This document shows, piece by piece, positions 17,824 through 60,600 of a DNA stretch of 64,000 nucleotides. Position numbers and translations under genes: made by a program. A model generated the notes under the pieces. It ran no database searches. It had not been told where the DNA came from and saw nothing but the letters and a program-made list of their open reading frames with translations. Where the stretch lies: assembly GCA_032718475.1 (NCBI GenBank), contig JAUCBJ010001574.1, positions 2,235 through 66,234 of the forward strand, written 5' to 3'. The DNA is from Nemertoderma westbladi (taxonomy: Eukaryota > Animalia > Xenacoelomorpha). Position 1 is the first letter of the stretch; every line of letters starts with the position of its first letter.

Positions 17824-18923
17824 TGTAAAAGCTTTTGCGGATATAACAAGTCATTTTTCTCCACAATATACCGTGTAGGTGTTTTAGCGGACATAACAAG
17901 CCATTTTCTGCCGCAATGCGCCTAATACTCTAAAAGACTGGAACTCAGATGACGAAATCTATCAGCTGATTTACTGTAAACGTGGAACATCTCTTTGTTC
18001 AGCTCGCTCAGCCAATCAGAGCGATTTTCATTTTATCTTGTACAGAGGCCTATGGAAAACCGCGCAATGCATTACGGTTTTTGTTTACTTTCTGAGCCTC
18101 AGAACATCGGCTTGGAAATTATTTCTGTGCTTCTGTGGAAGTTTCAGACTTTGGCCAACATTAGACGGCTTTGATTATAAGAACGTAAATCTATTATCTT
18201 ATCATATTGTCACATTGTCATACCGAACTGCATTATTTTACTTCTGTTTACTGTCTGTTATTAATTGTTGTTATATGTTGATGGATATGTTGTTATATTT
18301 GGAGAATACCGATAAATAATCATAAAACCCCAATCTTCTTTTCTTAATTACTGAAAGTAAGAGGGACCGGTTACCTGTAGCAATTGCGACTAACATTATA
18401 GTGGTTTTTGTGTGAATTAAATGCTATTTCATAATCCCTACATGTGTCAGTTGCTATCCTCCTTATATATGATCAAATTCAGTGACGGTCGGCAGATCAG
18501 TGTGAAGCAGTGTGAAGTCGTGTGCAGTAGTGTGACAGATAATAAAGCATCTCCTAAAGAATGCGCTATTTACGGAAATCAGTAGCCATCTAGTTGTGTT
18601 TAGTATAAGTCATAACTCTGTTTTTATACTTAAAGCGCCACAGTCCTAAAGGAACTGTTAATATTTCCCCGAAAGTGAATAATATTGTCAGAGATTATAT
18701 AGTAACGATCAATCGAATAATACAGTAGGTCTGCAACGCAATAAATTTCAAAGCACCCGAATCCAGTCTCCCTTAACTGTGGGTGAATGATCGCGCATAG
18801 ACTGGCTTCGGCTAATGTTACTTCATGTGCACTAAATAATTGTTATAGGCTAAAGTCGATTTATAAACAAGAGGACACCTAAAATTGGCAGGTTAAACTG
18901 CTAAAGGTCTGAAAGCGCGAACA
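17824..18923 (+). repeat. 5' LTR of copy B (1100 bp)
   Basis: TGTAAAAGC...GCGCGAACA; boundaries defined by the TSD-flanked copy E. Confidence 0.92.
17830..18025 (+). promoter_or_regulatory. Putative U3 enhancer/promoter: short tandem units, E-box CAGCTG and CCAAT box
   Basis: CCAATCAGAGCG and CAGCTG-like motifs are conserved at equivalent positions across LTR copies, while the GCGGACATAAC-type units vary in number. Confidence 0.5.
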
Positions 18924-18934
18924 ATAATAGATTT
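18924..18934 (+). promoter_or_regulatory. Putative self-priming PBS of copy B (ATAATAGATTT), complementary to 18187-18197
   Basis: Exact 11-nt reverse complement of AAATCTATTAT in the same LTR; no TGG-type tRNA PBS. Confidence 0.75.
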
Positions 18935-26593: not shown

Positions 26594-26605
26594 TATATCT
26601 GTTAT
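26594..26605 (-). promoter_or_regulatory. Putative self-priming PBS of copy C (sense ATAACAGATATA), complementary to 27318-27329
   Basis: Exact 12-nt inverted match. Confidence 0.75.
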
Positions 26606-27772
26606 TGTTCGCGCTTTTAGACCTTTAGCAGTTTAACCAGCCAAATTGGGATGTCTTATAGATAATGAATCGTCTTTAGCCTATGACGAGTATTTGATAC
26701 ACTACATTAGCCGAAGCCAGTCTATGCGCGACCATTCACCCGCTGGATATACCCGGGAGACCGGATTCGGAAGCCTAACCTTATTGCGGTGTTGGCCTAC
26801 TGTATTATTCGACTGATCGTAATATATAATCTCTGACAAATATTATTCACTTTCGGGAAATATTAACAGTTCCTTTAGGACGTGGCGCTCTAAATATGTA
26901 AAGAGAGTTATGACTTAAACTAGACACAACGGGATGGCTATGAATTCACGTATATGGCGCATTCTTTAGGAGATGCTTTGTTATCAGTCACAATCATACA
27001 CAATACTGCACAATGCTGCACACCGATCTGCCGACCTTCACTAATTTTAGTCACATATAAAGAGAACAACAACCAATACATGTAGTGCCTATGAAATAGC
27101 ATTAGATTCACTTCAAAACCACTTTAATGTAAGTCGCAATCGTTATATGTAACCGGTCTCTCTTACCTTCAGTATATCAAGAATATTGAGGGTTTTGTAA
27201 TTATTTATCGGTATTCCAAATATAATATTATTCCATCAACTGATATAATGAATAACCGACAGTAAATAGCAGTAAAAATGCGGTGTTTGTAGATATGATA
27301 TGAATTGTTAAGTTAAGATAACAGATATACGTTCTATAATTAAACCTACTAATGTTGGGCTAAAGACTGAAAAACACAGATATTCCGAAGCCGGTCTTCT
27401 GGGCTCAGGACAAAATGTAAACATTGACCCATAATGCATTGCGCGATTTCCCGGAGGTTTCTGTACAAAAAGCAGGAGAATCGCTCTGATTGGTTGACCG
27501 AACAAAGAAACACCAGAGAACAAGGAAAAAGCTACACGTGTACAGCTCAGTTGTTAGCTGTCGTCATAGTAACTACACTGTTTCAAGAGGATCTAGCGCA
27601 TTGCGTCATAGAATTGCTAATTATGTCCGCTAAAGTACACATACAGAAGAAATGGCTTTTTATGTCCCCTAAAACACCAGTACAGTAAGGATACGGCTTT
27701 TTATGCCTGTTAAACCAACTACAGAGTACTTTATGGGGAAAATAACCGGCTAATTCCGCAAAAGCTTTTACA

Positions 27773-29227
27773 AATTATCTGTATAATCTGGGCAGGCTTA
27801 CACGTCTTCTGCTCAATATTAACCTACAAGTAAATAAAACTGACAGAAATAAGTAACCTCCAAAAGAAACAAGGGGTGTACAGTCCCTAATCTCTTAAAC
27901 AGCCTACTGGTATACAATATCACAATCGAAATAATACTAGTACCTGTACTGCAGTAAGTACCGGTTCGGGTGGTTAGGTAGTTAGGCCTACTAGTTACCG
28001 GTCGACCGGTACTTTTGCCCTTTATTGCCTACGTGCAATAAAGAAGCTATATCTGTTATTGTTCGCGCTTTCAGACCTTTAGCAGTTTAACCTGCCAAAT
28101 TTAGATGTCTTCTAGATTATAAATCGACTTTAGCCTATGACGAGTATTTGTTACACTACATTAGCCGAAGCCAGTCTATGCACGACCATTCACCCGCTGG
28201 ATATACCCGGGAGACTGGATCCGGAAGCCTGACCTTATTGCGATGTAGGCCTACTGTATTATTCGACTGATCGTTAAGATATAATTTCTGACCAATATTA
28301 TTCACTTTCAGGAAATATTAACAGTTCCTTTAGGACGTGGCGCTCTAAATATGTAAACAGAGTTATGACTTACACTAGACACAACGGGATGGCTATGGAT
28401 TCACGTATAAAGCGCATTCTTTAGGAGATGCTTTGTTATCAGTTACAATCATGCACACTACCGCACAATACTGCACACTGATCTGCCGACCTTCACTAAT
28501 TTTAGTCACATATAAAGAGAACAGTAACCGACTCATGTAGTGCCTATGAAATAGCATTAGATTCACTCCAAAACCACTTTAATGTAAGTCACAATTGTTA
28601 TATGTAACCGGTCTCTCTTACCTTCAGTATATCAAGAAGATTGGGGGTTTTATGATTATTTATCGATATTCCAATATAATAATATTCCATCAACTGATAT
28701 AATTAATGACCGACAGTAAATAGCAGTAAAAATGCGGTGTTTGTAGTTTACAAATAAGTAGTGATGTGTGTATGTGGTGTGATAACAGATATACGTTTCG
28801 ATGATCAAGCCTACTAATGTTGGGCTAAAGCCTGAAAACACAGAGATTCCAAAGCCGGTCTTCTGGCATCAGGAAAAAAGGTAAACATTGACCCATAATG
28901 CATTGCGCGATTTCCCGGAGGTTACTGTACAAATAACAGGAGAATCGCTCTGATTGGTTGTCCGAACAAAGAAACAAAGGAAAAGCTACACGTGTACAGA
29001 TCAGCTGTTAGCCGTCGTCATAGTAACTACACTGTGTCAAGAGGATTTTAGCGTATTGCGACATAAAATTGCTAGTTATGTCCGCTAAAGTACACATACA
29101 GAAGAAATGGCTTTTTATGTCCACTAAAACACCGGTATAGTAATGAAACGGCTTTTTATGCCCGTTAAATCAACTACAGAGTACTTTGCGGGGAAAATAA
29201 CCAGCCAATTCCGCAAAAGCTTTTACA
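27773..29227 (-). mobile_element. Bel/Pao copy C': 5' LTR 28060-29227 plus ~290 bp of leader, interrupted by copy C
   Basis: LTR termini; leader homologous to ~26320-26605; PBS-like 28048-28059 matches 28782-28793. Confidence 0.9.
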
Positions 29228-31962: not shown

Positions 31963-32874
31963 ACCGGTCAGCCGGTAGGCCTACCAGTACCGTATTTAAA
32001 TTGTAGGCTACACAGTAGGCCTACAGCAGTACCGGTGCCGGTACCGGTACTAAAATACAGAAATGCCTGCTTTATACCTACATCTGTACATACAATACAG
32101 CAAAATAGTGCTATATACTAATACAGGTACTGATAGCCTGAGAGAACAGCAGTAGAGAAACCGGTAGCATGGAACCTAACATTGGATTTTTGGAGGACAT
32201 AAAAAATATAAAAAAAAGGACAAAAAAAGGATTTAAACGGACAATAAAAATTATTGCGTTATTTGTTAAGGAATTAAAAAATACTTTCCAAGTACAGTAT
32301 AGATTTTAAGAAATATTTGGGAGGGCACATATCATGCAATGCACTTACCAAATTCTTAACAAATTGTGTATACCTAGAATATAATTTCGGTGACTTTATA
32401 ACTTGACAAACATTTTATAAGAACTTTAATGGTGCTTGACACGCATTGCAATTATAAATCAGTCACATGATTCACCGCCAATAAATGACTCATTCAGTCA
32501 TTTTTTGCGTCAGTAGGCCTAATGCATAGTTGCGTTTATTGAGTTTTCTTTATTTACGTTTAATTGTTTAATGAATTTTGCTTACTAAAATAAAATAGTG
32601 TATAGCGTTTTGTTACTTTAATTTATACTGGTACTGTACTGTAGTTGTATTGCCGTTTGTCTACTTTACTTCAATTGTTTATTTATTTTGTTTGTACTCT
32701 GTTTATATCGTTAATGAATATTTATAATTTGCGTAATTGTCAGATTGTTGCTAATTGACAATTGTAATTGAATTAATGCCTAATTTGATACAATTAATTT
32801 CAAATTATTTAAATGTTAGTGAAATTTGATTAATAACAATTGAATTTGGAAAAATTGGAAATTAAAAAAGGCCT

Positions 32875-37386: not shown

Positions 37387-38592
37387 TGTAAAAGCTTTTG
37401 CTGAATTGTCCGGTTATTTTTCCTTATTTTTCCCGTAAAATACTCTGTAGTTGGTTTACCAGGCATAAAAAGGCCGTGTCCTTGCTGTACTGGTGTTTTA
37501 GCGGACATAAAAGCTATTTCTTCTGTATTTGTACTTTAGAGGACATAATCCGTAATTCCGTGACGTAAAAGCTCGATACTCTTGAAAACAGTGTCGCTAC
37601 CATGACGACGGCTAGCAGCTGATATTGCCACGTCGACGTTTCTTTGTTTCTCTGTTCTCTCGTTGTTCAGGTTGACCAATCAGAGCGTTTGTTGTCTCTG
37701 TGTTGGAGGTATATACAGAAACTCAGTAGTTCAGTGTTATGTTTTTGCCCAGAGCCTAAGAACCGGCTTTGGCACCTCCGTTTTTCAGTTTTTAGTCTTA
37801 CACTAGTAGGTTTAATTATAAAGGGCATATATCCTTTAACTCATGGAATCACTGCTAACTGATCATACATACTGACTGCTGAAACATTGCAAACTCATAA
37901 CAATCAGTGTTTTCATTGTTGTTTTATACTGCTATTTACCGTCAGTTCTTCATAATATGGTTGATGAATAATTATATTTGGAATAACGATAAATAACCCC
38001 GAAACCCAATATTCTTGATATACCGAAGGTAAGAGAGAAGGGTTACAGAATAACGATTGTGACTTATGTTAAAGTGGTTTGAAGTGAATCTAATGTTATT
38101 TGATAGACCCTACATGAGTCAGTCTGTGTTCCTTTTATATGTGACTAAAATCAGTGAAGATTGGCAGATTAGTGTGCAGTATTGTGCAGCATTGTGTATG
38201 AGTGAGTCTGTTAAAGAAGCAATTCCTAAAGAATGCGCCATATATGTGAATTATAATTAAGCCATATCGTTGTGAGTAGTTTAAGTCATAACTCTGTTTA
38301 TATAGATAAAGCGCCACGTCCTAAAGGAACTGTTAATATTACCGAAGGTGAATAATATTGTCAGAGATTATATAGTACTGTCAGTCGAATAATACATTAG
38401 GCTTACATAGCAATAAAATTAAACCGTCGAACCCAATCTCCCGGGAATATCCAGCGGGTGAATGATCGCGCACAGATTGGTTTCGACTAGTGTAGTGAAT
38501 CAAATACTTGTCATAGACTAAAAACCGATTTAATATCTAGAAGACATCTTAATTTGGTGGGTTAAACTGCCAAAGGTCTGAAAGCGCGAACA
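37387..38592 (+). repeat. 5' LTR of copy E (1206 bp)
   Basis: Near-identical to 47960-49165; one substitution seen by eye (38046 C vs 48619 A). Confidence 0.97.
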
Positions 38593-38604
38593 TTAAAGGA
38601 TATA
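38593..38604 (+). promoter_or_regulatory. Putative self-priming PBS of copy E (TTAAAGGATATA), complementary to 37828-37839
   Basis: Exact 12-nt reverse complement of TATATCCTTTAA. Confidence 0.78.
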
Positions 38605-40750
38605 GCTTCTGTATTGCAGTAGGCAATAAAGCTGAAGTACCGGCAACCGGTACCCAGTAGGCCTGACTACCTAACCACCCGGACCGGTACCTACAGCAGT
38701 ACAGGTACAGCAGTATTATTCGATTTTGATAATTATATACCGGTAGGCCTTAATAATTAATCAGGGAGGGCCCGCCCTGGTTTTTTATTGAGATTTTTAC
38801 TTATTTCTGTCAAGTTTTATTTATTTGTAGGCCAGTATTGAACAGAAGGCGTGTAAGCCTGATCAGATTGTACAGACGATTTGTAGGCTGAGCTGTTGTC
38901 TGATTTCTGTTAAGTCCGAACGAATTGCAGTGTGTGTAGATCACCTGTCCGATTAAGTACGATTAGGCAGTAGGGGCAGCGAACGCTGTAAGGTAAACCC
39001 CCAACTAAAGAATAAGTCGCACTACTGGGTTAGAGCGCATACTCCCTAATCATTTCGGAGTCTGCATGTCCTGTAGTTTATTTAGGCTTGAGAGTAGTCT
39101 GCCATCGTTTGGTCTGTACTTTGTTTGTGTAAGTCTGTACGGGTAGCGTATAATTTTATTTAGATAATTTGTAGGCTGGATAGTTGTCTGGCTGTTATTA
39201 GGTCTGAACGGATTGCCGCGTGTGTAGATCATCTGTCCGATTAAGTACGGTTAGGCAGTAGGGGCAGCGAACGCTGTAAGGTAAACCCCCAACTAAAGAA
39301 TAAGTCGCACTACTGGGTTAGAGCGCATACTCCCTAATCATTTCGGAGTCTGCATATACCGTAGTTTGTTTAGGCTTGATAGTAGTCTGTCAGTGTTCGG
39401 TCTGTATTTTGTTTGAGTAGTTTGTACGCGTAGCGTAATATTTATTATTCAGAGTTTATGCGATTATCCGCAACATTCATTCCCCAAGTTTGTTCCTACA
39501 GTAATTGTGTTTGTTATACATACCGCTATAGTTAAATTAACCCCGGTACTACACGGGCTGCTCGGCGTAGGTAAAGACTGGTGATTTTGTGCATCGGTCA
39601 CTCCAGCAGATGCCGTGGTTCTTTTAGCTGTTCAAGTATATTTAACTACTGATTATCTGTTATACAAGTACTCGTACCTAATTTAGGGTTTAGTGTACAG
39701 TACTTTCCGAAGTAATTAGTGTAGACATTATATCTGTGTTGTAAAGTGGTTGATAGGCACATTCGATTAGCTCTATTAACTTCTAGGTAGGAACACTCCG
39801 TGATACATAACGTAGAACCTATAGCGATACGGCTATAGGTCGTCAGGCGGTGGTATTTTCCTATCTAGACAACGCAGTGTATTTACTACTACTTATTATT
39901 TCAAATACCGTAGTACCCTGTCCGTTGTAATAACCGGTTATCTAACCCTTTGTTAGGCTGGTTTGTAGACTTCTTGTAAAATTACCCTAAAAATTCGTAT
40001 TTGTGTTTTGTAAATTTTGTGTTTATTTAGAGATTGTAATCTCACCCGAATTGTACGTAATTTGTAGTATTAAGTAACTTAGGTAAATTAGAATTATTTG
40101 TTTTAGTGTCCTATACGTAACACTTCACTAAAAGCGCACCGCTTTGTGTAGTGATTACCCCAGAAATAATAACATTTATTTCAAACATTGACTAAACCCA
40201 TTAAAACGGGTATAAATACATTATAAATCAAATCTAACGATTTATAAATAGTAGGCCTACCATAAAACCATTAGGTCTCAATATCAGTTGGATTACTGCT
40301 TAAATAACGGTAATAAAGTAAGTTAAAGTAACCAAGTAACCCTAAAGTTCAGAAATTCAATTATTCTAAAATAATTGATATACCGGTATCTACGATAGGC
40401 CTATTATCTTATTTCTATAAATCTAGGCTGAAATTATACCGGTACTTGTAATTAATTCTATTCCAGAATTATATATCCTACAAACTGTAAGCTGTATACC
40501 GGTATTCCGATAGGCCTATTATATTTTTATATATATTTGTGCTAAAATTATACCGGTATTCTGTGATAAACCTAGTCTGTAATAATAGTTATATATACTA
40601 TAAGCATACCGGTATTCTAATATATTATATATATCACGCTACACTGAGTAGCAGTACCGGTAATTAATTACTAGGCTAGCAGTTAATACTGAGTTACTAG
40701 ACTTGCTCAGACTGTAATACAGCAGTAGACATTCAACTGTACACATAAGC

Positions 40751-43700
40751 ATGTCTGACGCAAAGCAGAATCTGTCAGACAGTCTACTAGATACAACCGA
40801 GAGCGAAGTGACAGCAGAGAAACCACATAAGAGAGATGCCATTGACATCTATCTGTCAGACTATCAGCGTTTTTTAGGTGATGACGAGTTGAGGAGAAGG
40901 TTAGAGGGACTTAGCCCTAATAGTGAAGGAACCAAGCTTGTGTTGGATGCCATCGATGTGGAAATGAGGGCTGCGAATCAGGCTAAATTCGATGAACAAC
41001 TCCGCATCACACGAGTTCAAGAAGAACAAGTAAAGAAAAAACGTATAGAAGACAGAAAGAAAGCAGCAGTGGTAGCTGCAGAAGCAGAAAGAAAGGCGGC
41101 AGCGGCCAAGGCAAAGGCGGCAGAGGTAGCGGCCAAGGCAAAAGCGGCAGAGGCAGCGGCAGAGGCAAAGGCGGCAGAGGCAGCGGCCAGAGGCAAAGGC
41201 GGCAGAGGCAGCGGCCAGAGGCAAAAGCGGCAGAGGCAGCGGCCAGAGGCAAAAGCGGCAGAGGCAGCGGCAGAGGCAAAAGCGGCAGAGGCAGCGGCCG
41301 AGGCAGCGGCAGAGGCAAAAGTGGCAGAAGCAGAACGGAGAGCGGCTGAAGAAACCACCCAATTAGAATTGGAAAACATTCAGGAGAATCAAGACTGCAT
41401 AAATAAACAGTTAACAGCTAGTAATATGCAGATGATGGATCGATCTACTCCCAAAAGACAGGGATATACATCATCTGAGGAAGGCGATACCACCGATACT
41501 GAAGGCAAAGGAAATAGATCTCGTCTAAGCAGACGTAAAAGAACATTCCACCGTCAGAAATTGCCTGATTTGCCTCCAGCTGTTAGAAGGCAACTAAATA
41601 ACACCAACTTAGGTAGTACAGAGCCCACAGACCAAATAATTAAAATAGAAAGACTCCCTACTATAGTAGATGAGCCTGAAATAATTAGGCCTGTTCTTGA
41701 AATCACCCCTTCGGTGATAGACACACCTGTGCTCCCTGAAACTACTTCTAAATTCCCTCTGCATAGCACTAAGCTACCTGTGCCCCGTAGAACTGCCCCA
41801 GAGACAGTTCAGGTCCTGGACCCCGAGCGAAATATTCATAATTTGTCGCCCGTTGTCCCTCGTCCGCCCGCTACAACGTTGGCGACTCCCGCTTCGGCGG
41901 TCGAATGGGTGGACGAGAGACGGCGGGGGATGGATGGATATCCTGCTCGGGCAGATGCAGGAGACTGTCCAGCAGTTCAAGGGCACAGTAAGGGAAAGTA
42001 GGCTAGAGTTGCAAGAAGTGCAGCAAAGTATCGCGCTAGAACGCGATAAATTAGTAAATACTCAAAAGGGTATACCACCACCCTCTGTAACAATGTGTCA
42101 ACCTGTTAGGTCTGAAGTATCGCATGCGCAAGGTGTGGAGCCTACACGCATTTATACTGCTAGCGAAGTAGAAACTCCTATAGTGAACCCTATTAAGGGT
42201 AATTATAGACCTGTTGATAATGATATTCCCTATAGAACTGATCATAATCCGAGAAATTTATATACCGATAACTCGATATTAAATAGCATGATGGCCCAAG
42301 AAAGTTTTACGCGTCAAATGGCTAGAACCGAAGCCCGGCAAGCGGTAAAGGTTGGAGAGATCGTCAAGTTCAATGGAGATGAGATGAAATGGTTACCTTT
42401 TAATGAATATTACAATAATAACATACAGAACTCTGTACTATCTAATGGAGAAAAACTTAGATTCCTCATCGAGTGCTTGGAAGGATCTCCCAAGTCAATG
42501 GCGTTAAAATTTATTGGACATCCAGATGGATTAAGACAAGTTTGGGATACACTAAACATCAGGTATGGTAATAGGACTAACATAGCTAGGTATTTATATG
42601 CGAAATTAATGGCGCCCCGAAAGTTTCTTAGCAGCGGGATTATAGAGTTTTCCGATGAGATTCAGGAGATCTGTAGACAACTAGATTGGTTAGGTAAGTC
42701 TCATGAATACCAGAATTCTATGGTTGTAGGAGCCTTAGCATCTACTTTGCCCAAGGGTGGAGTAGGTACACGCTGGGACAAGAAGGTGTTATATCTGATG
42801 GAACAACAACGACGAGACCCTACCATGACTGATCTCATGTCATTCTTAGATAGAGAAGTGAAATTACAGCTCCTAAGGCAGTCCAGAGAGAAGACATTGG
42901 AAAACAAGGTAAGTGAGAAACCCGTTTCTAGGAGAAGGGTAACACCAGTATGTTATACCGACGACGGTGAAAGCCAAACTTCTCAAGGAGAGGACAGCGG
43001 GAAAGACACTGACAGATCTTATTATGTCAATAAATTGCCTAAAGATCAGGTAAGTAAATCCGAGTCTCGACCCAATGACAGAAGGGAACCGGTACAAAAA
43101 ACCCTTCCTACGTCTCCTAAAAGAATTCAGGTGAGAAAGCCCGAGGAAAGAACAAGTGTGCACCACATAGCACAGGTTAAAGTAAGTAACATCAAGCCGA
43201 AATGTGTGCTGTGCGACGGGCCCCACCATTTAAATGCGTGTGATAAATTCCTGAGGAAATCACTAAAGGATAGACGTGAAGTCATGTGGGATAAGCGGTT
43301 GTGTTATAATTGCCTCAGACGAGGACACCAACGGCGAACCTGTAACTCCGACGCAAGGTGTGCAAAGTGCGGCGCAAAACATCATATCTTGTTGCACACG
43401 GAATTCGAACGAAACAGCCCGAGTCAGGTAAGTGAGTCCGAACTACATGTCCAATTCAGTGATGTGAACGACACTGATCAATCTGAGATGGAAGGATTCT
43501 ATACGGACGAGTTCTCCGACCAAAACGAATCCTGTTACCTAATAAACACCACCGCAGTGTATCGAGCACTCGTGTATGAGAAAGACACAGACAGCGACCT
43601 TACCTTAACTACTTCCGATCAACAACCATCTTGGAAAGCGCCAACTTCCAATATCGGAATCCGAGAATTTCCTGTAGTCCAGTTACGGGTCCACGGACCT

Positions 43701-44942
43701 CAGAAGAGCTATATAGTGAACGCCCTCCTGGACTCCGGTAGCACAGGAACATTCATCGATAAAGAACTAGCCGAAGTCATCTTTGCTGGACAACCCAAGT
43801 TCCGAACCAAGCTAAACGTGTCAGGAATCATGCAAGTTTGGAAATCTACAGTAACAGCTGATTATTATGTAGGAGCGTTGTCCACCCCCCAGGACGAACT
43901 AGGAGAACATAGCATAAGGTCAGTGAAAATGGTGGCTATAAAGAACTTCGCTACTACTCAAGCAGACCTTTATAATTGGGACGAGGATGAGAGCATCCAA
44001 CATCTTAACATACCTCGATTCCAGACTGATTATCCTGGAGTGCAAATACTCATCGGCCAAAACGCGCATGAGGCGCTGGAGACATTAGAGAAACGACCTG
44101 CTCAACCGCAGCCACTACAGACCTATGCGGTAAGAACTAGAGTAGGTTGGTACCTTACTGGACCTTCCCGTAGAACGCTCAGGGAAAGACTGCTTCAAGA
44201 TCGCGTCTGCCAGGTGAGTGAATGGGAAGATGATACTAGTGAGGGAGACGACCCAACTGAGGGAACACCACACTCCTCAGATAATGACAATCTTAGCTCC
44301 AATGTAGATCAATGGAGATATTGCCCCAAGAAGTTTAATCCAACGGACATCGCTTCCAGAGGAGCAACTCCTCAAGAACTGACAGATACTATAGACCGGT
44401 TAGGTGAACCCGACTTCCTGAGTAAGGAGAATGAATGGCCTCCCCATCTTACTCCGACTGAGATTAGACCAGCCAAGGGAGCGGAGAAAGTCGAACCTGA
44501 AACCCGGACGGGTGGATCGGAGTTATTTGAACCCGGGATAGATCTGTCGGTATTACATGTTGCCAGGGACGACGCCGTGGATCTGGGCCTCCCCTCCGCG
44601 AGTGGATCCTTCATGAAGATCAGAGAGAGCGATTGGAGCTCTGGAACATCAGACGTCTCGCAGGGACTCTCACCTCTCCTGCAGAGAGCGACGGACCACT
44701 ATAGCTCCTGGAATCGGCTTTGTGACGCCGTCATATACTTTGAGCGATGTTTCTATCGTCACTATTCCAGGACGAAGAGGAAACCTGGAATTGTATTCAG
44801 GATGCAGCGACTCAATCACCCAGTCGGTCGTTTGTGTTTATCGGAAGGGAATGGAGGACTCTCCGGAAACTGTGGAAGGCAAGATTCTCTTCCCACGACC
44901 ACCTCCCTAATCCTTCAAACATCTAGGGACTCCATAACGTAA
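40751..44942 (+). pseudogene. gag: Gag-protease polyprotein of copy E: three in-frame deletions and a frameshift (GGAT duplication near 41933)
   Basis: Three Bel/Pao-type Cys/His knuckles (CVLCDGPHHLNAC, CYNCLRRGHQRRTC, CAKCGAKHHILLH), intact LLDSGS protease motif, ends at the native pol stop. Confidence 0.88.
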
Positions 44943-47881: not shown

Positions 47882-47959
47882 CTGTTTAGAGTATCTTTAT
47901 GTTTTAGAAACTGTGATTTTTATATTTTATAGACTGAAAATCCCATTTTCTGGGAGCGG

Positions 47960-49165
47960 TGTAAAAGCTTTTGCTGAATTGTCCGGTTATTTTTCCTTAT
48001 TTTTCCCGTAAAATACTCTGTAGTTGGTTTACCAGGCATAAAAAGGCCGTGTCCTTGCTGTACTGGTGTTTTAGCGGACATAAAAGCTATTTCTTCTGTA
48101 TTTGTACTTTAGAGGACATAATCCGTAATTCCGTGACGTAAAAGCTCGATACTCTTGAAAACAGTGTCGCTACCATGACGACGGCTAGCAGCTGATATTG
48201 CCACGTCGACGTTTCTTTGTTTCTCTGTTCTCTCGTTGTTCAGGTTGACCAATCAGAGCGTTTGTTGTCTCTGTGTTGGAGGTATATACAGAAACTCAGT
48301 AGTTCAGTGTTATGTTTTTGCCCAGAGCCTAAGAACCGGCTTTGGCACCTCCGTTTTTCAGTTTTTAGTCTTACACTAGTAGGTTTAATTATAAAGGGCA
48401 TATATCCTTTAACTCATGGAATCACTGCTAACTGATCATACATACTGACTGCTGAAACATTGCAAACTCATAACAATCAGTGTTTTCATTGTTGTTTTAT
48501 ACTGCTATTTACCGTCAGTTCTTCATAATATGGTTGATGAATAATTATATTTGGAATAACGATAAATAACCCCGAAACCCAATATTCTTGATATACCGAA
48601 GGTAAGAGAGAAGGGTTAAAGAATAACGATTGTGACTTATGTTAAAGTGGTTTGAAGTGAATCTAATGTTATTTGATAGACCCTACATGAGTCAGTCTGT
48701 GTTCCTTTTATATGTGACTAAAATCAGTGAAGATTGGCAGATTAGTGTGCAGTATTGTGCAGCATTGTGTATGAGTGAGTCTGTTAAAGAAGCAATTCCT
48801 AAAGAATGCGCCATATATGTGAATTATAATTAAGCCATATCGTTGTGAGTAGTTTAAGTCATAACTCTGTTTATATAGATAAAGCGCCACGTCCTAAAGG
48901 AACTGTTAATATTACCGAAGGTGAATAATATTGTCAGAGATTATATAGTACTGTCAGTCGAATAATACATTAGGCTTACATAGCAATAAAATTAAACCGT
49001 CGAACCCAATCTCCCGGGAATATCCAGCGGGTGAATGATCGCGCACAGATTGGTTTCGACTAGTGTAGTGAATCAAATACTTGTCATAGACTAAAAACCG
49101 ATTTAATATCTAGAAGACATCTTAATTTGGTGGGTTAAACTGCCAAAGGTCTGAAAGCGCGAACA
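47960..49165 (+). repeat. 3' LTR of copy E (1206 bp), preceded by PPT-like TGGGAGCGG
   Basis: Direct repeat of 37387-38592. Confidence 0.97.
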
Positions 49166-52100
49166 CCCCATCATCATTATGATGATCTAAGGACATGCGT
49201 AGAACATAGTCAACCACAATAATGAACAAGAATGGTGCAAGTGTGTCTCCTTGGAGGACGCCCCATAACACTTCAAATGGTTCTGTGTCACCATCAACAG
49301 TAGACACAAATGTTGTCGAACCATCGTATACTGATCTGATTGCTGCAATAATTTCACCAGGAATCCCATATAATGAAAGTATGCTGAACATACGTGAGCG
49401 AGAGACTGAATCAAAGGCCTTGAAGAAGTCAACAAAGATAACAGCCAGATGCCTGTCTTTCTTTTTTGATAACTCTTCAATTATCCTTCTAAGTGCCAAA
49501 ATGGGCTCCATGGTCCCACGACCTTTACGGAACCCATTCTGATTTCCACGTAGCAGTCTCTCAATGGGATCCCTGATGCGATTTAATAGAATTCTATTGT
49601 ATAGTTTTGCAGCAATCGAGATCAATGAGATTCCCCGAAAAGAACCATAGAGTGTTAGGTTGCCCTTCTTGGGAACTGGCACCAACTTATTTGTTTTCAT
49701 TTCTTGTGGGACTCTTGTTGTACGGTACATGTCTACTATGATGGGATAGATGAGCTTTAAACACTCAGGTATTTTAAAGACCTCAGGGGGAACACCATCT
49801 ACTCCACTGGCACGATTGGTCTTAATGCTCTTTGCAGCAGCCTTCACTTCTGCAAAGGAGATATCGCCAATGGGAATATCTGGGAGTACAGACTCAGACA
49901 CTTTTACTTCTATAAAGTTATCAGGCAATACCCTGTCATTATTGAGGAGCTTTTCAAAGTGGGCTTTCCAACCATTGAGGCGATCGGCTGGTGATTCAGC
50001 CTTAACCTTGGTGGTTGGTTGGCTTTTCCGCCCAGTAAGCAGATTGATCGATTTCCATGCTACGGGTCATGGTGTATAAATATACTGTAATATAATAATA
50101 ATATAAATTATGATATTTTTTTTCGATTCGTTATTCCCAAATATGCTTCGCTTCGTTTCGTTTTCCTTTCGTTAAAGGCCCTTCCGCGCAGCTTTTTTTT
50201 GAGCTTTTTTTCAAGCTTTTTTTAATTAAAACAATTTCTAGGAATTAATTGCTTCAAGATGAATCTGCGAATTTTCGAATACTAAAACCTAAAATATAGA
50301 ATAAAGCTCAAAAAAAGCTTGAAAAAAGGTTTGAAAAAAAACTAAAAAAAAAAGCTTGAAAAAAGCTAGAAAAGAAAGCTCAATAAATATCAATAAAATA
50401 AATAAGCCATCCCTGAATATAATATAATAATAATAATTATTATTATTATATTACCTCCAGCGAACGCTAATTATTGCAATCGTTTAATGCCTACATCTCA
50501 GGTGTTTCTAAACGAATTCAGTCATTGTTATACTGTATGTTTGGAATCCTTGCAACGTAACTTTTCTATTGATATAGATAAAACCGGTTCCTTACAAAAG
50601 CAAACCACGCCACAACGTGGGGGGTCATCAGGGGGGATTCTCCCAAGGACGTATTGATTCTCCCAAGTAGGGCGTACTGTATGTGTGACATCGATTTTAT
50701 TATTTGAAAAAGGACCTTACACAGAACGATTAATTAGAATTATATTAAGGCAACGGCAACAATGAACAGCGCAAATATCTTAGACTTCATGATTTATAGT
50801 GCACAAAGTACATGTAGGAAGTTTAGCCCAAAATCGTCACTTTAGCCAGTGAATCGCTAATATGTGTGACCGACTGTAGCGTGACCGTACTGTATGTATC
50901 TGTGTATAAATTGTCAATTTTATTCACAATATGTATAATTTTATTTACGTCATACAGCCGTACTATCTTCACATGTTCATTGTTTATAATGGTTATACGT
51001 GTCTCTTGTAGGCCTATATGTTCTTGTTAGCTCTATTTTATTTTTTATATTTAATGTCAATTAAACAATTCCAATTCCTATCCCGAAGACACTTATAATT
51101 ACAGTATATTTAATTCTTTTTATCCGTTTTCTAGCAATACAATAATCGATACGCAATCTGACAAAATTTATAGTAAACACAGTATGCCCGATCCACCTTC
51201 ACGCGGACTGAGCGCTATTTTCCTGAAAAACCGACATTGTCGGTTTGTTTTGTTATTCGCCGCAGCTTCCAAGCATGGTGAGGCCTCTTTTTCTCCGTCA
51301 TATTTGAAGTTGCGCTGCCCCTACAGCCAAATCTAAGGGCTGAAAATTGGAGGCAACTGGCCTCCACGAGAAGACTTATACTGTAAAGGCTTTTGCGGAT
51401 ATAACTAGTCATTTTCCCCGCAAAGTACTCTGTAGGTGTTTTAGCTGACATAAAAAGCCGTTTTTCTTACTGTGTAGGTGTTTTAGTGGACATAAAAAGC
51501 CATTTTTCTGTATGTGTACTTTAGCGGACATAACAAGCCATTTTATGCCGCAATACGCCAAAATACTCTTAATACAGTGTGGCTTAGATGACGAAATCTA
51601 TCAGCTGATTTTGATGTCGATGTGGAGCTTTCTTAACTCTCTTTGTTCAGCTCACTCGACCAATCAGAGCGATTTTCATTTTATTTTGTACAGAAGCCTA
51701 CGGGAAATCACGCAATGCATGACGGTTTTTGTTTACCTTTTTCCTGAGCCCAGAACATCGGCTTTGGAATTATTCTTAGTTTCAGACTTTAGCCAAACAT
51801 TCGACGGCTTTGATTATAGGAACGTATAACTGTTATCGCAGTGCCAGACTCATACCAAACTGGACACACAAATGCAGGTCATATTATACTATACGTACGG
51901 TTACCTGTAGCAATTGCGACTTACATTATAGTGGTTTTGGAGTGAATTGAATGCTATTTCATAATCCCTACATGTGTCAGTTACTATTCTCCTTATATAT
52001 GATCAAATTTAGTGAAGGTCGGCAGATCAGTGTGCAGCAGTGTGCGGTAGTGTGCATGAGTGTGACAGATAACAAAGCATTTCCTAAAGAATGCGCTTTA

Positions 52101-52360
52101 TACGAAAATCATTAGCCATCCCGTTGTGTTTAGTGTAAGTCATAACTCTGTTTACATACTTAAAGCGCCACGTCCTAAAGGAACTGTTAATATTTCCCGA
52201 AAGTAAATAATATTTGTCCGAGATTATATATTAACGATCAATCGAATAGTATAGTAAGTCTACACCGCAATAAGGTCAGAGCCTCCGAATCCAGTCTCCC
52301 TTAACTGTGGGTGAATGGTCGCGCATAGGCTGGCTTCGGCTAATGTAACTTTATATCTTA

Positions 52361-52625
52361 CTAGCAGGCAATACCCGAGGCATGTTACCCGGTATTTCCC
52401 GCTACCGGCATATGCCTACTGGCGTACTGGTACCGGTATAGGCCTACTGACGTACCGGTACCCAGTACCGGTACCGAACTTGAATTATACTTTTCGAAAA
52501 GTGGCCTATAACGACCGCTGGTTAAAGTTATACACACATGCCAAGTTCCAGCGCAATCCCTCCGCCCGTTTTGGAGGAGTTCGAACACAGAAAGAAAGAG
52601 AGAATTTGATTTTTATAGGTATAGA
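52361..52625 (-). mobile_element. 265-bp non-autonomous Helitron inside the copy F LTR
   Basis: Minus strand reads A|TC...CTAG|T with a subterminal imperfect hairpin (TACCCG...CCGGTA on plus); absent from the other LTR copies. Confidence 0.8.
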
Positions 52626-52723
52626 TATGCAACAAATACTTGTTATAGGCTAAAGTCGATTTATAAACTAGAAGACACCTAAAATTAGCGGGTTAAACTG
52701 CTAAAGGTCTAAAAGCGCGAACA

Positions 52724-52734
52724 ATAACAGTTAT
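52724..52734 (+). promoter_or_regulatory. Putative self-priming PBS of copy F (ATAACAGTTAT), complementary to 51826-51836
   Basis: Exact 11-nt reverse complement of ATAACTGTTAT. Confidence 0.75.
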
Positions 52735-54649
52735 TGTAGTTTCTTTATTGCAACGTAGGCAATAAAGTCGAAGGTACCGGTCGAACGGTGAGCTGTAGGC
52801 CTAACTGCCCAACTGCACGAACCGGTACTTACAGGTACATCAGTATTATTCGATTTTGATAATTATATACCGGTAGGTCTTGATATTTAATCAGGGACTG
52901 CAGCCCTGGTTTTTATTGGGATTTTACTTATTTCTGTCAGTTTTATTTATCTGTAAGTTAATATTGAGCAGAAGGCGTGTAAGCCTGCTCAGATTGTATA
53001 AATAATTTGTAGGCTGGATTGTTGTCTGGTTGTTGTTAAGTCTGAAGAGATTGCAGTGTGTGTAGAGTGTATGTCCGATAAAGTACTAGTTAGGAACGTG
53101 GGGGCATCCAGAGCTGTAAGGTAAATCCCCCCCCCCCCCCCCCCCCCCGAAAGAATAAGTCGTACTACTCGGTTAGAACGAGTACTAACTAACCATTTCG
53201 GAGTCTGCATATACTGTAGTTTATTTAGGCTTGATAGTAGTCTGCAGGCGTTTGGTCTGTATTTTGTTTGTGTAGTCTGTACGGGTAGCGTAATATTTAT
53301 TATTCAGAGTTTATGCGATTATTCGCAACATACACAACCCCAAGTTTATTCCTACAGTAATTGTGCTTGTTATACATACCGTTATAGTTAAATTAACCCC
53401 GGTACTACATCAGGGCTGTTTGGCGTAGGTAAAGACTGGTGATTTTATGCTCTAGTCACTCCAGCAGATACTGTGGTTCTTTTAGCTGTACAAGTATATT
53501 TAACTGCTGGTTATTTGTTGTATAAGTACTTGTACCTAATTTAGGGTTTAGTGTACAGTGCTTTCCGAAGGTAATTAGTTTGTAGGCAGTATATTTGTGT
53601 TGTAAAGTGGTTAATAGGCACGTTAGCTATAGTTGGCTGCGGTAATTAACTTCTAGGTAGGAACACTCCGGGTACATAACGTAGTACTTATAGAGCTGTA
53701 AGCTAGAGACTATAAGTCGTCAGACGGTGGTATTTTCTTATCTAGACAACGCAATATATTTACTACTGCTTAATTATTTTCAAATACCGTAGTATCCTGT
53801 CCGTTGTAATAACCAGAAATTCTAACCCCTTGTTAGGCTGGTTTGTAGATTTCTTGTAAAATTAACCCTAAAATTTGTACGTGTAATTTTTGTGTTTATT
53901 TAGAGATTGTAATCTCACCCCTTAATTGTACGTAATTTGTAGTAATAAGTAACTTAGTAAATTAGAATTATTTGTTTTAGTGTCCAATAAGTAGCACTCC
54001 ACTGAGAGCGTTCAGCTTCTGTGAAGTGACTCCTTACCTAGAAATAATAACATTTATTTCGAATATTGTCAAAACCCATTAAACGGGTATATATATATAT
54101 TATAAATCAACTCAAACCGATTTATAAAATAGTAGGCCTGTTATACATAAATTAGGTCTTAATATCAGTTGGACTACTGCTTAAATAACGGTAATAAAGT
54201 GAAGTAAAGTAACTAGGTAACCCTAAAATTCAGAAATTCAATTATTCTAAAATAATTGACATACCGGTATTTACGATAGGCTTATTATATTTATTCTATA
54301 AATTTATGCTGAAATTATATACCGGTATTCTGTAATTAATTTAGTCTATAATTATACTTATATATACTACAAGTGTAAGCTGTATACCGGTATTCACGGT
54401 AGGCTTATTATATATTTATATATATTTATGCTGAAATTATATACCGGTATTCTGTGACAAACCCTAGTCTGTAATAATACATATATATATACTATAAGTG
54501 TATACCGGTATTCTAATATATTGTATATATATCACGTTACACTGAGTAACGATATCGGTAATTAATTACTAGGCTTTTAGTTGATACTGAATTACTAGAC
54601 TTGCTTTAACTGTAGTTCTAGCAGTAGGCATTCAACTGTACAAATAAAC

Positions 54650-57600
54650 ATGGCTGACACAAAGCAAAACCTGTCAGGCAGTCTCCTAGATACAACAATC
54701 TGTGATCCAAATAGGATTGCGGAACGTTTGAGACCGAAGTTCAACTCCCCTCCTACTGTAAGAAAGGTCATCCCTCCAGTAGTAGTATCAGACCCTAGGC
54801 TAGTTAAACACCGTAGGTCTATCATAGGCACTCGGGCTCAAGTCAAGCGGGACCAAGAGGCAGCTGTTAAACAACAGCAACACTCGAGCCGAGAACTTAT
54901 TTCTCAGCGGCCCGATAGCTCCAGTAGTTCAGATACTGTAGAGTTGACACCCGAGCGCGGAGCAAAAATGGCAGATGCAGTTTATTCGGATCCACTTCTC
55001 ATTCTTCATGAAGCCGTACTCACTAGAGTATTGATTGCGGTGGAGGAACATCAAATGGATTGGGCGAGAAGTAAGCGATCGACCAAGGACAGTTATGCGG
55101 GATACACGAAGGAGGAACTGAAGTCTATTGTCGAGACGCAATGGAATTTCCCCGGACCCGGACTCCCGTTTAACTTATCAGAAGCTGCCTGGGAGGACTT
55201 ATACAGGATGGGAGTGGTAAGGGACACTAGAGATCCAGCTGTGTGGAAGAGGTCGGCAGCAGGATATGTACAGGGATTCTTCAGCTCTCTGGAGCGATTA
55301 GAGGAACAACTGTTTCAACAACCCCAAGGACCTCAAGAGCAGGGAGAGCTGCTTTATCAAGTTCGAGAAAGAATTCTAAGAATCAGACTAATCCTATCGG
55401 CCTTTGAGGAAGCTTCGAAAAGAAGCCAAGACACGTCGTTGCAATTTGCCGTAAAGACTTGGTTCCAGCGGGTGGGTCTCAAAGTTCAAGGAACGGCCCA
55501 GTGGAAATTTCAGCTGGCTGAGCGCTCAACCCACGGAGAATCAACAGACGCTACCTTTTCTCAAGTGGAAAGCGAAGCGACAGCAGAGAAACCTCAGAAG
55601 AAGGACGCTATTGACATATATCTGTCGGACTATCAACGATTTCTAGGTGATGAAGAGTTGAGGAGACGGCTGGCTGGACCTCGTCCTAATAGTGAAGGAG
55701 CCAAGTTTGTGTTGGACGCAATAGATGCGGAAAGGTTAGAAGCGGATCGAGCTAAATTTGATGAAAGAATCCGCATCGTTAGGGAACAGGAAGAACAATT
55801 AAAGAAAAAACAAAAAAGCTGCAGTGGCAGAGGCAGAAAGAAAAGCGGCAGCGGCAGCGGCAGAGGCAGAAAGAAAAGCGGCAGTGGCAGAGGCAGAAAG
55901 AAAAGCGGCAGCTGCAGAAGCCGAAAGAACTGCGGCGGAGGCAGTGGTAGAAGCAGAACGGAAGGCATCTGAAGAGACAACCCAACTAGAGTTGGAAAAT
56001 CTTCAAGAGAAGCAAGACTACTTAAATAAACATATAACAGCTAGTCAGATGCAGCTGATAAGTCGATCTACTCCCAAGCGACAGGGATTTACATCATCTG
56101 ATGAAGGCGAGACAACAGATCCTGAAGGCGGAGGAAATAGATCTCGTCTCAGCAGGCGTAGAAGAATGCCCCACCGTCAGAAATTGCCTAATTTGCCCCC
56201 AGCCGTGAGAAGGCAACTAGCTAGCACAGACTTAGGTAGTACAGAACCCACAGACCAAATTATGAGAGTAGAAAGACTCCCTATTATAGTAGATGAGCCT
56301 GAAATAATTAGGCCTGTTCTCGAAGCCACCCCTTCTGTGATAGAGACCCCTGTACTTCCAGAACTTAACTCTAAATTCCCTTTGCATAGTACTAAACTAC
56401 CTGTATCCAGTAGGACAGTTCCTCAGTCAACTCCGGTCCTGGACGCCGAGCGAGACATTAACAATTTGTCACCCTTCGTCCCTCGTCTACCCGCTACTAT
56501 GTTGGCGGCTCCCGCTTCGGCGGTAGAGTGGGTGGATGAGCGACGGCAGGGGATGGATATTCTCCTCGGGCAGATAGAGGAGAATCAGGCACGCTCCTCC
56601 CAGCAGGTCCGAGAGTTGGAGGGGACTGTTCAACAGTTAAGGGGAACAGTAAGAGAGAGTAGGTTAGAATTGCAGGAAGTGCAGCAGAGTATCGCATTAG
56701 AACGAGATAAGTTAGTAAATCTACAAAAGGGTGTACCACCACCCTCTGTAAAAATGTGTCAACCTGTTAGGTCTGAAGTATTTCATGCGCAAGGTGTGGA
56801 GCCTACACGCATCTATACTGCTAGTGAAGTAGAAACTCCTATAGTAAACCCTATTAAGGGTAATTATAAACCTGTTGACAATGATATTCCATATAGACCT
56901 GATAATAATCCGAGAAATTTATATACCGATAACTCGATATTAAATAATACGATGGCCCAAGAAAGTTTTACGCGTCAAATGGCTAGAACCGAAGCCCGTC
57001 AAGCGGTAAAGGTGGGAGAGATCGTCAAGTTCAATGGAGATGAGATGAAATGGTTACCTTTTAATGAATATTATAAAGATAACATACAGAACTCTGTGCT
57101 ATCTAACGGAGAGAAACTTAGATTCCTCATCGAGTGTTTGGAAGGACCTCCCAAGTTAATGGCATTAAAGTTTATTGGACATCCAGATGGATTAAGACAA
57201 GTTTGGGATACACTAAACATCAGGTATGGTAATAGGACAAACATAGCTAGGTATTTGTATGCAAAATTGGTAGCATCCCGAAAGTTCATTAGCAGCAGGA
57301 TTATAGAGTTTTCCGATGAGATTCAGGAGATCTGTAGACAACTAGATTGGTTAGGTAAGTCTCATGAATATCAGAGTTCCATGGTTATTGGAGCCGTAGC
57401 CTCTACTTTGCCCAAGGGTGGAGTAGGTACTCGCTGGGACAAGAAAGTGCTCTATATGATGGACCAGCAACAAAGAGACCCTACCATGGCTGATCTCATG
57501 TCATTCTTAAATGGAGAGGTAAGATTACAGCTCCTAAAGCAGTCCCGAGAGAAGACACCGGATAATAAGGTAAGTGAAAAACCCGTTTCTAGAAGAAAGG

Positions 57601-60600
57601 TAACACCAGTGTGTTATACAGACGACGGCGAAAGCCAAACCTCTCAAGAGGAGAGCAACGGGAAAGACACTGAAAGATCTTACTATGTCAACAAAACACC
57701 AAAGGATGTAAGTAAATTTAAGTCTCGAACCAGTGACAGGAGAGAACAGACAACAAAAACTCCTCCCACGTCTCCTAAGAGAATTCATGGAAGAAAGCCC
57801 GAGGAAAGAACGAGTGTGCACAACACTTCCCAAGGTAAAGTAAGTAACATCAAACCAAAATGTGCATTGTGCGACGGACCCCACCGTTTAAGTGTGTGTG
57901 AGGAATTCTTAAAGAAATCCCTAAAGGATAGACGCGAAGTCATGTGGGATAAGCGGTTGTGTTATAATTGTCTCAGACAAGGACACCAACGGCGAACCTG
58001 TTACTCCGACGCAAGGTGTGCGAAGTGCGGCGCGAAACATCATATTTTGTTGCACACCGAATTCAAAAGAAACAGCCCGAGTCAAGTAAGTGAGTCCGAA
58101 CTACATGTCCAATTCAGTGATGTGAACGACACTGACCTCAGTTCTGAGATGGAAGGATTCTACACGGATGAATTCTCCGACGAAAACGAATCCTGTTATC
58201 TAATAAACACTGCAGTGTATCGAGCACTTACGTATGAGACTGAAACTGATAGTGAGCTCCCCCTAACTATTCCAGACCGACAACCATCTTGGAAAGCGCC
58301 AACTGCCAACGTAGGAATCCGAGAATTTCCCGTAGTGCAGTTGAGAGTCCACGGGTTAGAAAAGAGCTATATAGTGAACGCCCTCCTTAACTCCGGCAGC
58401 ACAGGAACATTCATCGACAAAGAACTAGCCGAAGACATCTTTGCTGGACAACCCAAGTTCCGAACTAAATTGAACCTTTCAGGAATTATGCAGGTTTGGA
58501 AATCTACAGTAACTACAGACTACTATGTAGGCGCGTTGTCCACCCCCCAGGATGAACTAGGAGAACACAGTATAAGGTCAGTAAAAATGGTGGCGATAAA
58601 GAACTTCGCTACCAGACAAGTGGAACCTTATAACTGGGATGAAGACGATTTCACCCAGCAGCATGAGATACCTAGATTCAACACCGACTACCCAGGGGTA
58701 CAATTACTCATCGGCCAAAATGCGCATGAAGCGCTTGAGACATTAGAGAAATGGCCTGCTCAACCGCAACCACTGCAAACCTATGCGGGAAGAACCAGAG
58801 TAGGTTGGTACTTTACTGGACCTTCCCGTAGGACTCTAATGGAAAGGCTACCTAAAGAGCAAGTCTACCAGGTGAGTGAATGGGAAGGGGAAATCAGTGA
58901 AAGAGACGACACACCTGAGGGAACACCATATTCCTCAGACAATGATGATATTCATCAACTATTCGACGAGGAGAATACCATCGACCTCCTTACGAAAGTG
59001 AAACTTGGCAAAACCAAGTGAACCTGTGTCACCTCATCCATCCAGCGGGACAAGTCGATTACAACGACGAACTGAATGAAGTGATAGATCGTTACAACGC
59101 GCAGACTCGCGATGAACACGCCGTATGATTCTTTACTCAAGAGGCTGTAGAGCCCAATTCCTAGGATAAGGCCCTATCGGTAGAAGAGGAAAGAGCCAAG
59201 CAGATACAGAAAACGACTACACGTTTTCTTAAAGATCAAGGTAGGTATGAGATTGGTCTGCCTTTCCGACGGCAAGAACCCAATTTTATAAACAACAGCA
59301 AATGCTTCAGCTAAGGAGATGTACCAGACCCAGCTGAAGAAATTCATTGACAAGGGATATGCGGAGCGAGTACTGGAAGAAACACCTATAACTGAGAGAA
59401 CGTACTATTTAACACATCATTACGTTCCCAAACCCGGTAAACCCAACGAAGTCCGGGTAGTATTTGACGGCTCCGCCCTCTACATGGGACAATCCCTTAA
59501 CTCAGAGTTGTTGCCGGGACCCAACTTACTCCAATCCTTGTTGGGAATACTCTTAAGATTACGACAATATTCGATCGCTTTCGCCTCCGATATAGAAGGC
59601 ATGTTCTTACAAGTTAAGGCGCTGGATAAGGATCGGGACAGCCTACGATTTCTGTGGTGGCCTGAAGGAGACCTCAACCAGAAACCGGTGGAGTACTGGA
59701 TGACCATCCAGGCTTTTGGGATCATCTCGAGCCCTTCAAACGCCTGCTCAGTAGTGCGCACCACTGCTGATGACAACCGGGACGCCTTCTCCAAAGAGGT
59801 TATCGACAACATCAAATGGGATATATACATGGACGACAATTTAAAGTCCCTCCCATCGGTGGAAGAAGCCATTGATGTCGCCAAAGGAATGGTAGAGTGC
59901 TTGAAAAGAGGTGGATTTCGATTAACTAAATTCACCAGTAACTCCCGTGAATTTCTGGAATCGATCCCGGTAGAAGACCGAGGAGTTAAAGATCTAGACC
60001 TTATCAAGGACGATCTTCCAGAAACCAAGACGCTTGGTTTGAAATGGGACACAGAGAGAGATATCCTATTTTTCCAGCTAAAACAGCGAGATAATCCAGT
60101 TCGGACTAAACGGATTTGTCTAAGTATCCTGAGCACTTATTTCGATCCATTGGGATTTATTAGCCCAGTTATATTGATTGCTCGGAGTTTAGTACAACAA
60201 ATGTGGCTTGAAAACCACTCGTGGGACGATCCACTTAAGGGAGAACTATTAAAGAAGTGGATGAAATGGAAAGATTCTCTACCATCTATCGAGAATTTTA
60301 CAATTTCCCGTTCATATTTTGGTCATGTTCTCCCCACGTATTCCTATCAACTCCATGTGTTTGGAGACGCCAGCGATATGGGATTAGGTATAGTAGCCTA
60401 CCTGAGAGTTGAAACTCCGGATGGAATTAAGGTCGCCTTGGTTACCTCTAAGGCCTTGATAAACAACAAGTTGAAAGTTCCTCGAGCGGAGTTAAAAGCG
60501 GCTCTATGCACTACGGCCATCAGCCGGAATGTAACAGAACAGATCGACTATCCACTGGAGAAAACTGTCTATTGGACCGATGCTTTACTCGTGTTGGAGT

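Follow-up and report, generated by a model that had tools for sequence, protein, structure and literature searches.

The window, that is, the whole stretch of DNA analysed here, comprises 64,000 nt of Nemertoderma westbladi (GCA_032718475.1, contig JAUCBJ010001574.1, 2,235 to 66,234, forward strand). It contains one family of LTR elements in at least seven pieces, namely A, B, C, C', E, F and an LTR fragment at 3875-4227 (Table 1). Of B, C and C', only the 5' part is present, and of A only the 3' part. B (plus strand) and C (minus strand) abut within gag, tail to tail, at 23703/23775; C' is broken by C after about 290 nt of the C' leader, counted from the C' primer-binding site (PBS). Element E, 11.8 kb in total, has the features of an LTR element, including TG...CA LTRs, a 5-bp target duplication and a purine tract. 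Its LTRs show 1 difference in 1206 positions, and E is a young insertion. E lacks the part aligning to F 58946-60675 (RT and most of RNase H) and also the integrase region; being without RT, RNase H and the integrase core, it therefore moved with enzymes that were presumably borrowed. The host of E is a LINE (36494-37386 and 49166-50066; RVT_1 and DUF6451 matches), and a second LINE copy (12403-13847; 96.5% identity over 897 bp) is without the E insertion. The window also holds tandem repeat arrays at 2543-2927, 5994-6717, 16704-17665 and 31363-31963, which are unrelated to the LTR family.

Table 1. Features of the LTR family in the window (window coordinates).
Feature	Position	Strand	Description
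Fragment A	7515..8608	-	3' LTR with polypurine tract; site same as that of F; no full complement after the LTR
Element B	17824..18934	+	5' LTR 17824-18923, site 18187-18197, PBS 18924-18934; truncated in gag near 23703
Element C	26595..27772	-	5' LTR 27772-26606, site 27328-27318, PBS 26605-26595; truncated near 23775
Element C'	28049..29227	-	5' LTR 29227-28060, site 28792-28782, PBS 28059-28049
Element E, 5' LTR	37387..38592	+	1206 bp, TGT...ACA
Element E, CCAAT-box motif	37676..37687	+	identical in 7/7 aligned LTRs; distance to the downstream site 153-175 nt in the five 5' LTRs
Element E, TATA-like sequence	37710..37717	+	similar in A; absent in B, C, C', F
Element E, TTTCAG	37783..37788	+	in 7/7 aligned LTRs; distance to the downstream site about 41-46 nt; resembles an initiator or an acceptor
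Element E, predicted self-primer site	37829..37839	+	11 nt; 12th pair at 37828
Element E, splice-donor-like motif downstream of site	38029..38035	+	present in E, B, C, C', A; deleted in F
Element E, PBS at LTR+1	38593..38603	+	complement of 37829-37839
Element E, predicted leader hairpin directly 3' of PBS	38605..38638	+	in all five leaders
Element E, gag-protease region (DUF1759)	40718..44942	+	runs straight into late pol sequence
Element E, second deletion junction	44778..44780	+	lacks the part aligning to F 61153-62549 (integrase region)
Element E, polypurine tract	47952..47959	+	
Element E, 3' LTR	47960..49165	+	target duplication 49166-49170; left copy 37382-37386
Element F	51382..52734	+	5' LTR 51382-52723, site 51826-51836, PBS 52724-52734
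Element F, gag-pol	54599..62712	+	several broken frames; element continues past the window end

An earlier note on this DNA had assigned the family to Bel/Pao, and the protein domains agreed. Element F carries DUF1759, Peptidase_A17, Integrase_H2C2 and DUF5641 in the Bel/Pao order (Pfam), the Integrase_H2C2 match being weak and below the cut-off; RVT_1 itself was unmatched in F, and the RT motif YMDD was read in its translation. No chromodomain match was found in the 19 window ORFs scanned (Pfam). By its RT-RNase H, too, the family is closest to Bel/Pao elements: at least 120 longer homologs were listed, all with PF05380 and with 39-45% identity, and the named sources among them were cnidarians, echinoderms, molluscs, a nemertean and fish. 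No named Bel/Pao reference element was among the homologs retrieved, and the aquatic host range only hints at the Sinbad, Sparrow, Surcouf and Suzu clades.

In all five 5' LTRs of the window (5/5), the bases from LTR+1 are the exact reverse complement of a site inside the same LTR, as the earlier note had described. The internal sites are homologous, falling in the same alignment columns across the LTRs, and lie 712-887 nt from the LTR end. The pairing begins exactly at the LTR edge, with a spacer of 0 between LTR and PBS. The boundary of E is set by its LTR pair, by the 5-bp target duplication and by the empty target site, which is visible in the second host LINE copy at 13291-13295, and the 5' LTRs of B, C, C' and F share the final 12 bases of E. 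The 12th pair is present in E, C and C' and absent in B and F, which leaves 11 nt as the constant unit. Because C and C' are identical, the five copies provide four independent sequences. Each of these fits its own LTR, the PBS having 0 mismatches to its own site and 1-4 to the sites of the other subfamilies. Among E, B, C and F, 5/11 columns vary in site and PBS alike, and all of these changes are compensated. Variable columns in the flanking LTR amounted to 184/329 and 147/493, indicating that the site varies roughly as much as the LTR around it, with the pairing kept. An own-LTR match of at least 11 nt anywhere was reached in 1 (E), 3 (B), 1 (F), 4 (C) and 3 (C') of 2000 dinucleotide shuffles per element, where the stretch shuffled for B took in 83 flanking bases. 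The sequence after the 3' LTRs of E and of fragment A differs from the PBS, and A shares 4 nt only.

The absence of a TGG-type tRNA PBS was likewise borne out. No TGG lies within 27 nt of any of the five 5' LTR ends, and the sole TGG within 46-48 nt of them is at +28 in C. A different true LTR end hiding a TGG site was rejected in view of the target duplication and empty site, and a tRNA primer in view of the absent TGG together with the variable PBS. ARAGORN predicted no tRNA in the 64-kb window.

Several further observations concern the site and its copies. The F LTR has an insertion of about 270 nt (about 52355-52624) between the site and the LTR end and a deletion directly after the site, and its site/PBS match is intact. 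After the 3' LTR of fragment A (7500-7514, minus strand) come 4 bases identical to those with which the PBS predicted from A's own site begins. These bases may reflect chance or insertion at PBS microhomology, a process described for integrase-free Tf1 in the accessible part of PMC11042837. The PBS of F, C and C' starts with ATAAC (52724-52728, 26605-26601 and 28059-28055), the same five bases that open the Tf1 PBS according to that part of PMC11042837; this likeness is probably a coincidence. Contigs from the public run X1, whose type was guessed and which contains 57% of the words, span most of E's LTR and include the host site in its empty state. The public contigs showed no joint from the donor-like motif at 38029 in the stretch compared, and a contig resuming at 37789 after AG was read as a diverged LTR copy and not as splicing.

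Scans for relatives yielded 79 metagenome loci and 47 genome-bin loci, taken as host contamination. The latter (L080-L126) are Bel/Pao-related loci in contigs of prokaryote genome bins, and animal host contamination is their most likely source; a viral contig collection yielded no relative of the window family. Flanking repeats were sought in all 126 loci and 26 were inspected, of which 15 had a settable LTR end and 11 were dropped. Twelve of the 15 defined-end relatives lack a TGG. Nine of these match their own LTR across a GT-AG intron within the LTR, two match contiguously, and L083 has one mismatch. The nine split matches span 10-15 nt and the two contiguous ones 11 nt, and each was equalled at 0-3/100 control positions. 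The three TGG controls (3/3) matched their own LTR over 5-7 nt only, which 23-89/100 control positions equalled. L083 was not significant in this position test and pairs 10/11 across a hand-set junction; both of its LTRs share a change that is absent from the PBS. Six of the nine split relatives have the donor GTAAG, two have GTGAG and one has GTACG, and the acceptors are pyrimidine-rich YAG. L040 and L044 are near-copies. L087 has two donors of equal score, and the one homologous to that of L088 was used; between L087 and L088, 2/3 first-exon bases differ and the PBS changes with them. The predicted LTR intron of L086 is 1022 nt long (L086:2095-3116).

Blind scans, in which the LTR end was guessed too, were run on 91/126 loci with looser follow-ups, and L107 was found by eye. 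They added 18 distinct elements, giving 29 in total, of which 24 are spliced and 5 contiguous. Spurious spliced matches of at least 11 nt occurred at 3 loci on the tRNA side and at 3 loci on the self side. L046, L034 and L071 gave no match, and most other contigs had no readable LTR. In L107, the 3' LTR lacks the second half of the site and the 5' LTR retains it (4290-4700 and 9901-10283). When the boundary was left free, each non-TGG element gave 3-43 split matches of at least 10 nt, and the GT-AG match was top or tied in 5/9. Free split matches are thus common, and this control was a weak one with a partly unfavourable outcome; what counts as evidence is therefore the splice signal placed exactly at the boundary and not length alone. 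For the window family, a spliced junction brought no gain in match.

The pairing in the relatives ends sharply. With the register chosen for the longest match, 10-11/11 of the defined-end relatives show Watson-Crick pairing at each of positions 1-11 and 4/11 at position 12, and no G-U pair occurs in positions 1-11. Position 12 pairs in 1/13 of the blind matches, which were selected for at least 11. LTR and PBS are separated by 0-4 nt. Templated copying would be expected to give such a sharp end free of wobble pairs, whereas selection on an RNA helix should tolerate G-U.

The relatives with an own-LTR match also group together. In a quick IQ-TREE of 41 rows (L088 and L107 left out), rooted by midpoint only, 27 self-matching relatives group with F on one side of a branch (length 1.1, SH-aLRT 100), opposite seven TGG elements and six proteins from arthropods or nematodes. 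FastTree with 129 rows gave the same split at 0.999, both trees being built from rows without a gypsy or copia outgroup. F is an early long branch (1.55). Intron-less relatives appear at about four separate places among intron-bearing ones, with L014 sister to the intron-bearing L008, which suggests repeated intron loss. The independent origin from Tf1/sushi that had been proposed is supported on two counts, the family belonging to another superfamily and tRNA-primed Bel/Pao elements lying across the branch.

The sequence around the site bears on where transcription would start, and the earlier note had predicted the start at or near the 5' base of the 11-mer. This placement is doubtful. An intron-spanning 11-mer is present in 24/29 matching relatives, for which such a start would leave first exons of 3-7 nt. 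Among the relatives, TATAWAW precedes the site by 122-167 nt in 5 distinct elements and is absent from most of the 28 loci examined; in L022, a TATA box is located at -31 relative to the site. In 23 relatives, the 25 nt preceding the site form more stable pairing with the 25 nt that follow the PBS than swapped partners do (mean -12.9 vs -8.7 kcal/mol; 0/10000 permutations, uncorrected for relatedness). These three lines of evidence indicate that the site in the relatives is probably internal to R. In the window family, no TATAWAW lies upstream of the site, and the 5' extension of pairing was no better than in controls (9-10/23 cross pairs as good; 18-103/200 shuffles); for this family, the indirect evidence on a start at the 11-mer is neutral. 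The TATA-like sequence of E would place a start near 37733-37741. AWTAAA occurs 1-50 nt after the site in 13/28 loci of the relatives. The 3' arm of the leader hairpin contains AATAAA in all five window copies, and this hairpin could either mask a poly(A) signal or be stacked onto the primer duplex.

Taken together, the own-LTR match, its covariation, the absence of TGG and the recurrence of this signature, mostly split by a GT-AG intron, in a large related clade make self-priming with copy-back, as first proposed, the best reading and a likely one. Judged from sequence, the window family very probably primes itself in some form. For the more specific model, in which an 11-nt own-LTR site, predicted to lie inside R, would prime the minus strand of this Bel/Pao family in cis and without a tRNA, we put the chances at about even. 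According to this model, the 5' part of the genomic RNA would fold back so that the site pairs with the PBS, and a nuclease would cut 3' of the site and free a 3'-OH. In Tf1, the RNase H of the element frees the primer, and the nuclease here may by analogy be the element's own RNase H. RT would then copy U5 and R back to the cut and jump to the 3' R; as a result of this jump, both new LTRs would take the site, and the unspliced intron if there is one, from the 3' LTR. Plus-strand synthesis would copy the 11 nt of the primer into the new PBS, and site and PBS would thereby stay matched base for base. The fixed length of 11 may, more speculatively, reflect the distance between the polymerase and RNase H sites. 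In the intron-bearing relatives, the primer would come into being when the cap-proximal copy is spliced, and the unspliced 3' copy could not pair and so would escape cutting. A fully spliced RNA, if reverse transcribed, would yield intron-less LTRs like those of the window.

The cis model demands that one LTR copy be spliced and the other not, which counts against it. A self-primer could instead come from a separate molecule or end, either as a short LTR-only RNA packaged with the unspliced genome or as the 3' R copy of the genome. An LTR-only RNA, spliced and polyadenylated in the relatives, would allow the intron to be kept without differential splicing within one molecule, and the AWTAAA close after the site makes acceptor and signal resemble a terminal exon. 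The 5' extension of the pairing would also be present in a 3' R copy, and a primer from there fits L022. On the other hand, each subfamily, including the RT-less E, fits its own LTR only, which is natural in cis, although subfamily-specific pairing could also yield such a match; moreover, a primer from the 3' end takes away the R homology needed in the first jump. We consider a primer of this origin possible, if rather unlikely.

A strictly Tf1-like arrangement, in which the first base of the 11-mer is the transcription start and the opening 11 nt of the RNA serve as the primer, appears improbable. The Tf1 primer is also 11 nt long, the 11-mer begins with A preceded by T in all five window copies (an initiator-like step), and the TATA position in L022 and the lack of a significant 5' extension in the window family fit such a start. 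It would nevertheless need the very short first exons in 24 relatives, and it conflicts with the upstream TATA boxes of 5 distinct relatives and with their significant 5' extension. The CCAAT box of the window family, at 153-175 nt from the site, is also, by established promoter spacing, far for a start there.

The pairing might alternatively be a structural RNA switch under selection, serving packaging, translation or cyclisation, with a host tRNA fragment or another site as primer. Long-range pairings between LTR and leader occur in other retroelements. Some Copia elements without a PBS bear only a hairpin, as stated in the portion of PMC5445492 available. For the elements studied here, such a switch would have to account for a match that begins at LTR+1 to +5, where a PBS must be, ends at 11 and contains no G-U pairs. 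The PBS varies at 5/11 positions within one genome and widely in the clade, so that no single host RNA would fit, and no TGG lies near the LTR end. We therefore give this explanation little weight. Chance in AT-rich sequence, an assembly artefact or DNA-level template switching that copied the site beside the LTR is hardly credible, since, although the sites are AT-rich and the window alone offers only four independent sequences, shuffles reached the match in only 1-4/2000 cases per element, DNA-level copying cannot make a match to an exon-exon junction, the X1 contigs take in most of E's LTR and the empty host site, and the junction-spanning matches in independent contigs largely refute all of these.

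Self-priming from the own LTR thus remains the preferred reading, and it can be compared with known systems. In the ICTV description of Belpaoviridae, a host tRNA-Arg or tRNA-Gly acts as primer at a PBS of 18 nt (PMC8742986). The window family has in common with this profile the LTRs, the polypurine tract, the set and order of gag-pol domains and the animal hosts, whereas E, at 11.8 kb, exceeds the range of 4.2-10 kb (PMC8742986). No 18-nt tRNA-Arg or tRNA-Gly PBS was found in the window family. A tRNA PBS is absent in this family and its clade but present in other Bel/Pao loci retrieved here. The window family is Bel/Pao by protein descent only and departs from the profile in priming. A search by title and abstract start, with subscription papers, supplements, Repbase and GyDB mostly outside its range, returned no report of self-priming in Bel/Pao. 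The available main text of the Sinbad paper (PMC554778) contains no PBS statement, and that of three Bel/Pao surveys (PMC3118150, PMC6238403 and PMC2774666) no PBS or primer-binding passage; the accessible parts of PMC3601003, PMC8220671 and PMC4558846 added nothing further on the question.

The absence of a tRNA site is shared with Tf1, Tf2, Tj1, the Tf1/sushi group and plant Tcn1 (Ty3/gypsy chromoviruses). In Tf1/sushi elements, the PBS beside the 5' LTR complements a short stretch of the own LTR and is copied into the cDNA end, according to the parts consulted of PMC4600332, PMC10085805, PMC11042837 and PMC6317226. The window family likewise has a PBS complementary to its own LTR, but its Bel/Pao domains place it in another superfamily, and the chromodomain integrase of Tf1/sushi was not found. 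It would work like Tf1 yet is not a Tf1/sushi member. Tf1/sushi RNA forms a 'pretzel' of three duplexes around the PBS; the structures of this region covered in the window family were the leader hairpin and the 5' extension of the pairing. In the sections available, PMC6317226 describes self-priming for Tf1/sushi and predicts it for plant Tcn1 and the Copia TAR lineage. For the latter (plant Ty1/copia; Houba, Osr-1), the prediction is based on PBS/5' LTR complementarity of at least 10 nt (PMC6317226, same sections). This evidence is of the same kind as that for the window family, in a second superfamily; however, TAR belongs to plant Copia, and no intron-split primer is described there in the text available. 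Fungal GalEa Copia elements and bivalve TRIMs have no tRNA PBS, a mechanism that is not known and a hairpin after the 5' LTR (PMC5445492 and PMC6934838, as far as accessible). The window family shares with them the missing tRNA PBS and the hairpin. For GalEa, the authors found no LTR complement to that site (PMC5445492, in the part seen), whereas the window family has a perfect, covarying one.

The source of the first primer is a basic trait of an LTR element, and ICTV gives a host tRNA for all Bel/Pao. Weighing the relatives together with the window family, we lean towards the view that a clade of aquatic-animal Bel/Pao elements swapped tRNA priming once, independently of Tf1/sushi and plant TAR, for an 11-nt self-primer assembled by the host spliceosome from two LTR exons. 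Splicing would then license reverse transcription and mark the LTR copy that can be cut, and the window family would be a deep intron-less branch with a ready-made primer. If this is true, self-priming arose in a third LTR superfamily and spans a large clade in cnidarians, molluscs, echinoderms and fish, and an internal primer built by splicing would connect host splicing with reverse transcription in a new way. Control by tRNA fragments that target the PBS would presumably fail against elements of this kind, and annotation software that requires a tRNA site would overlook them or rank them lower. With its fixed 11 nt, the copy-back would offer a direct and testable ruler for how such enzymes start on and remove their primer.
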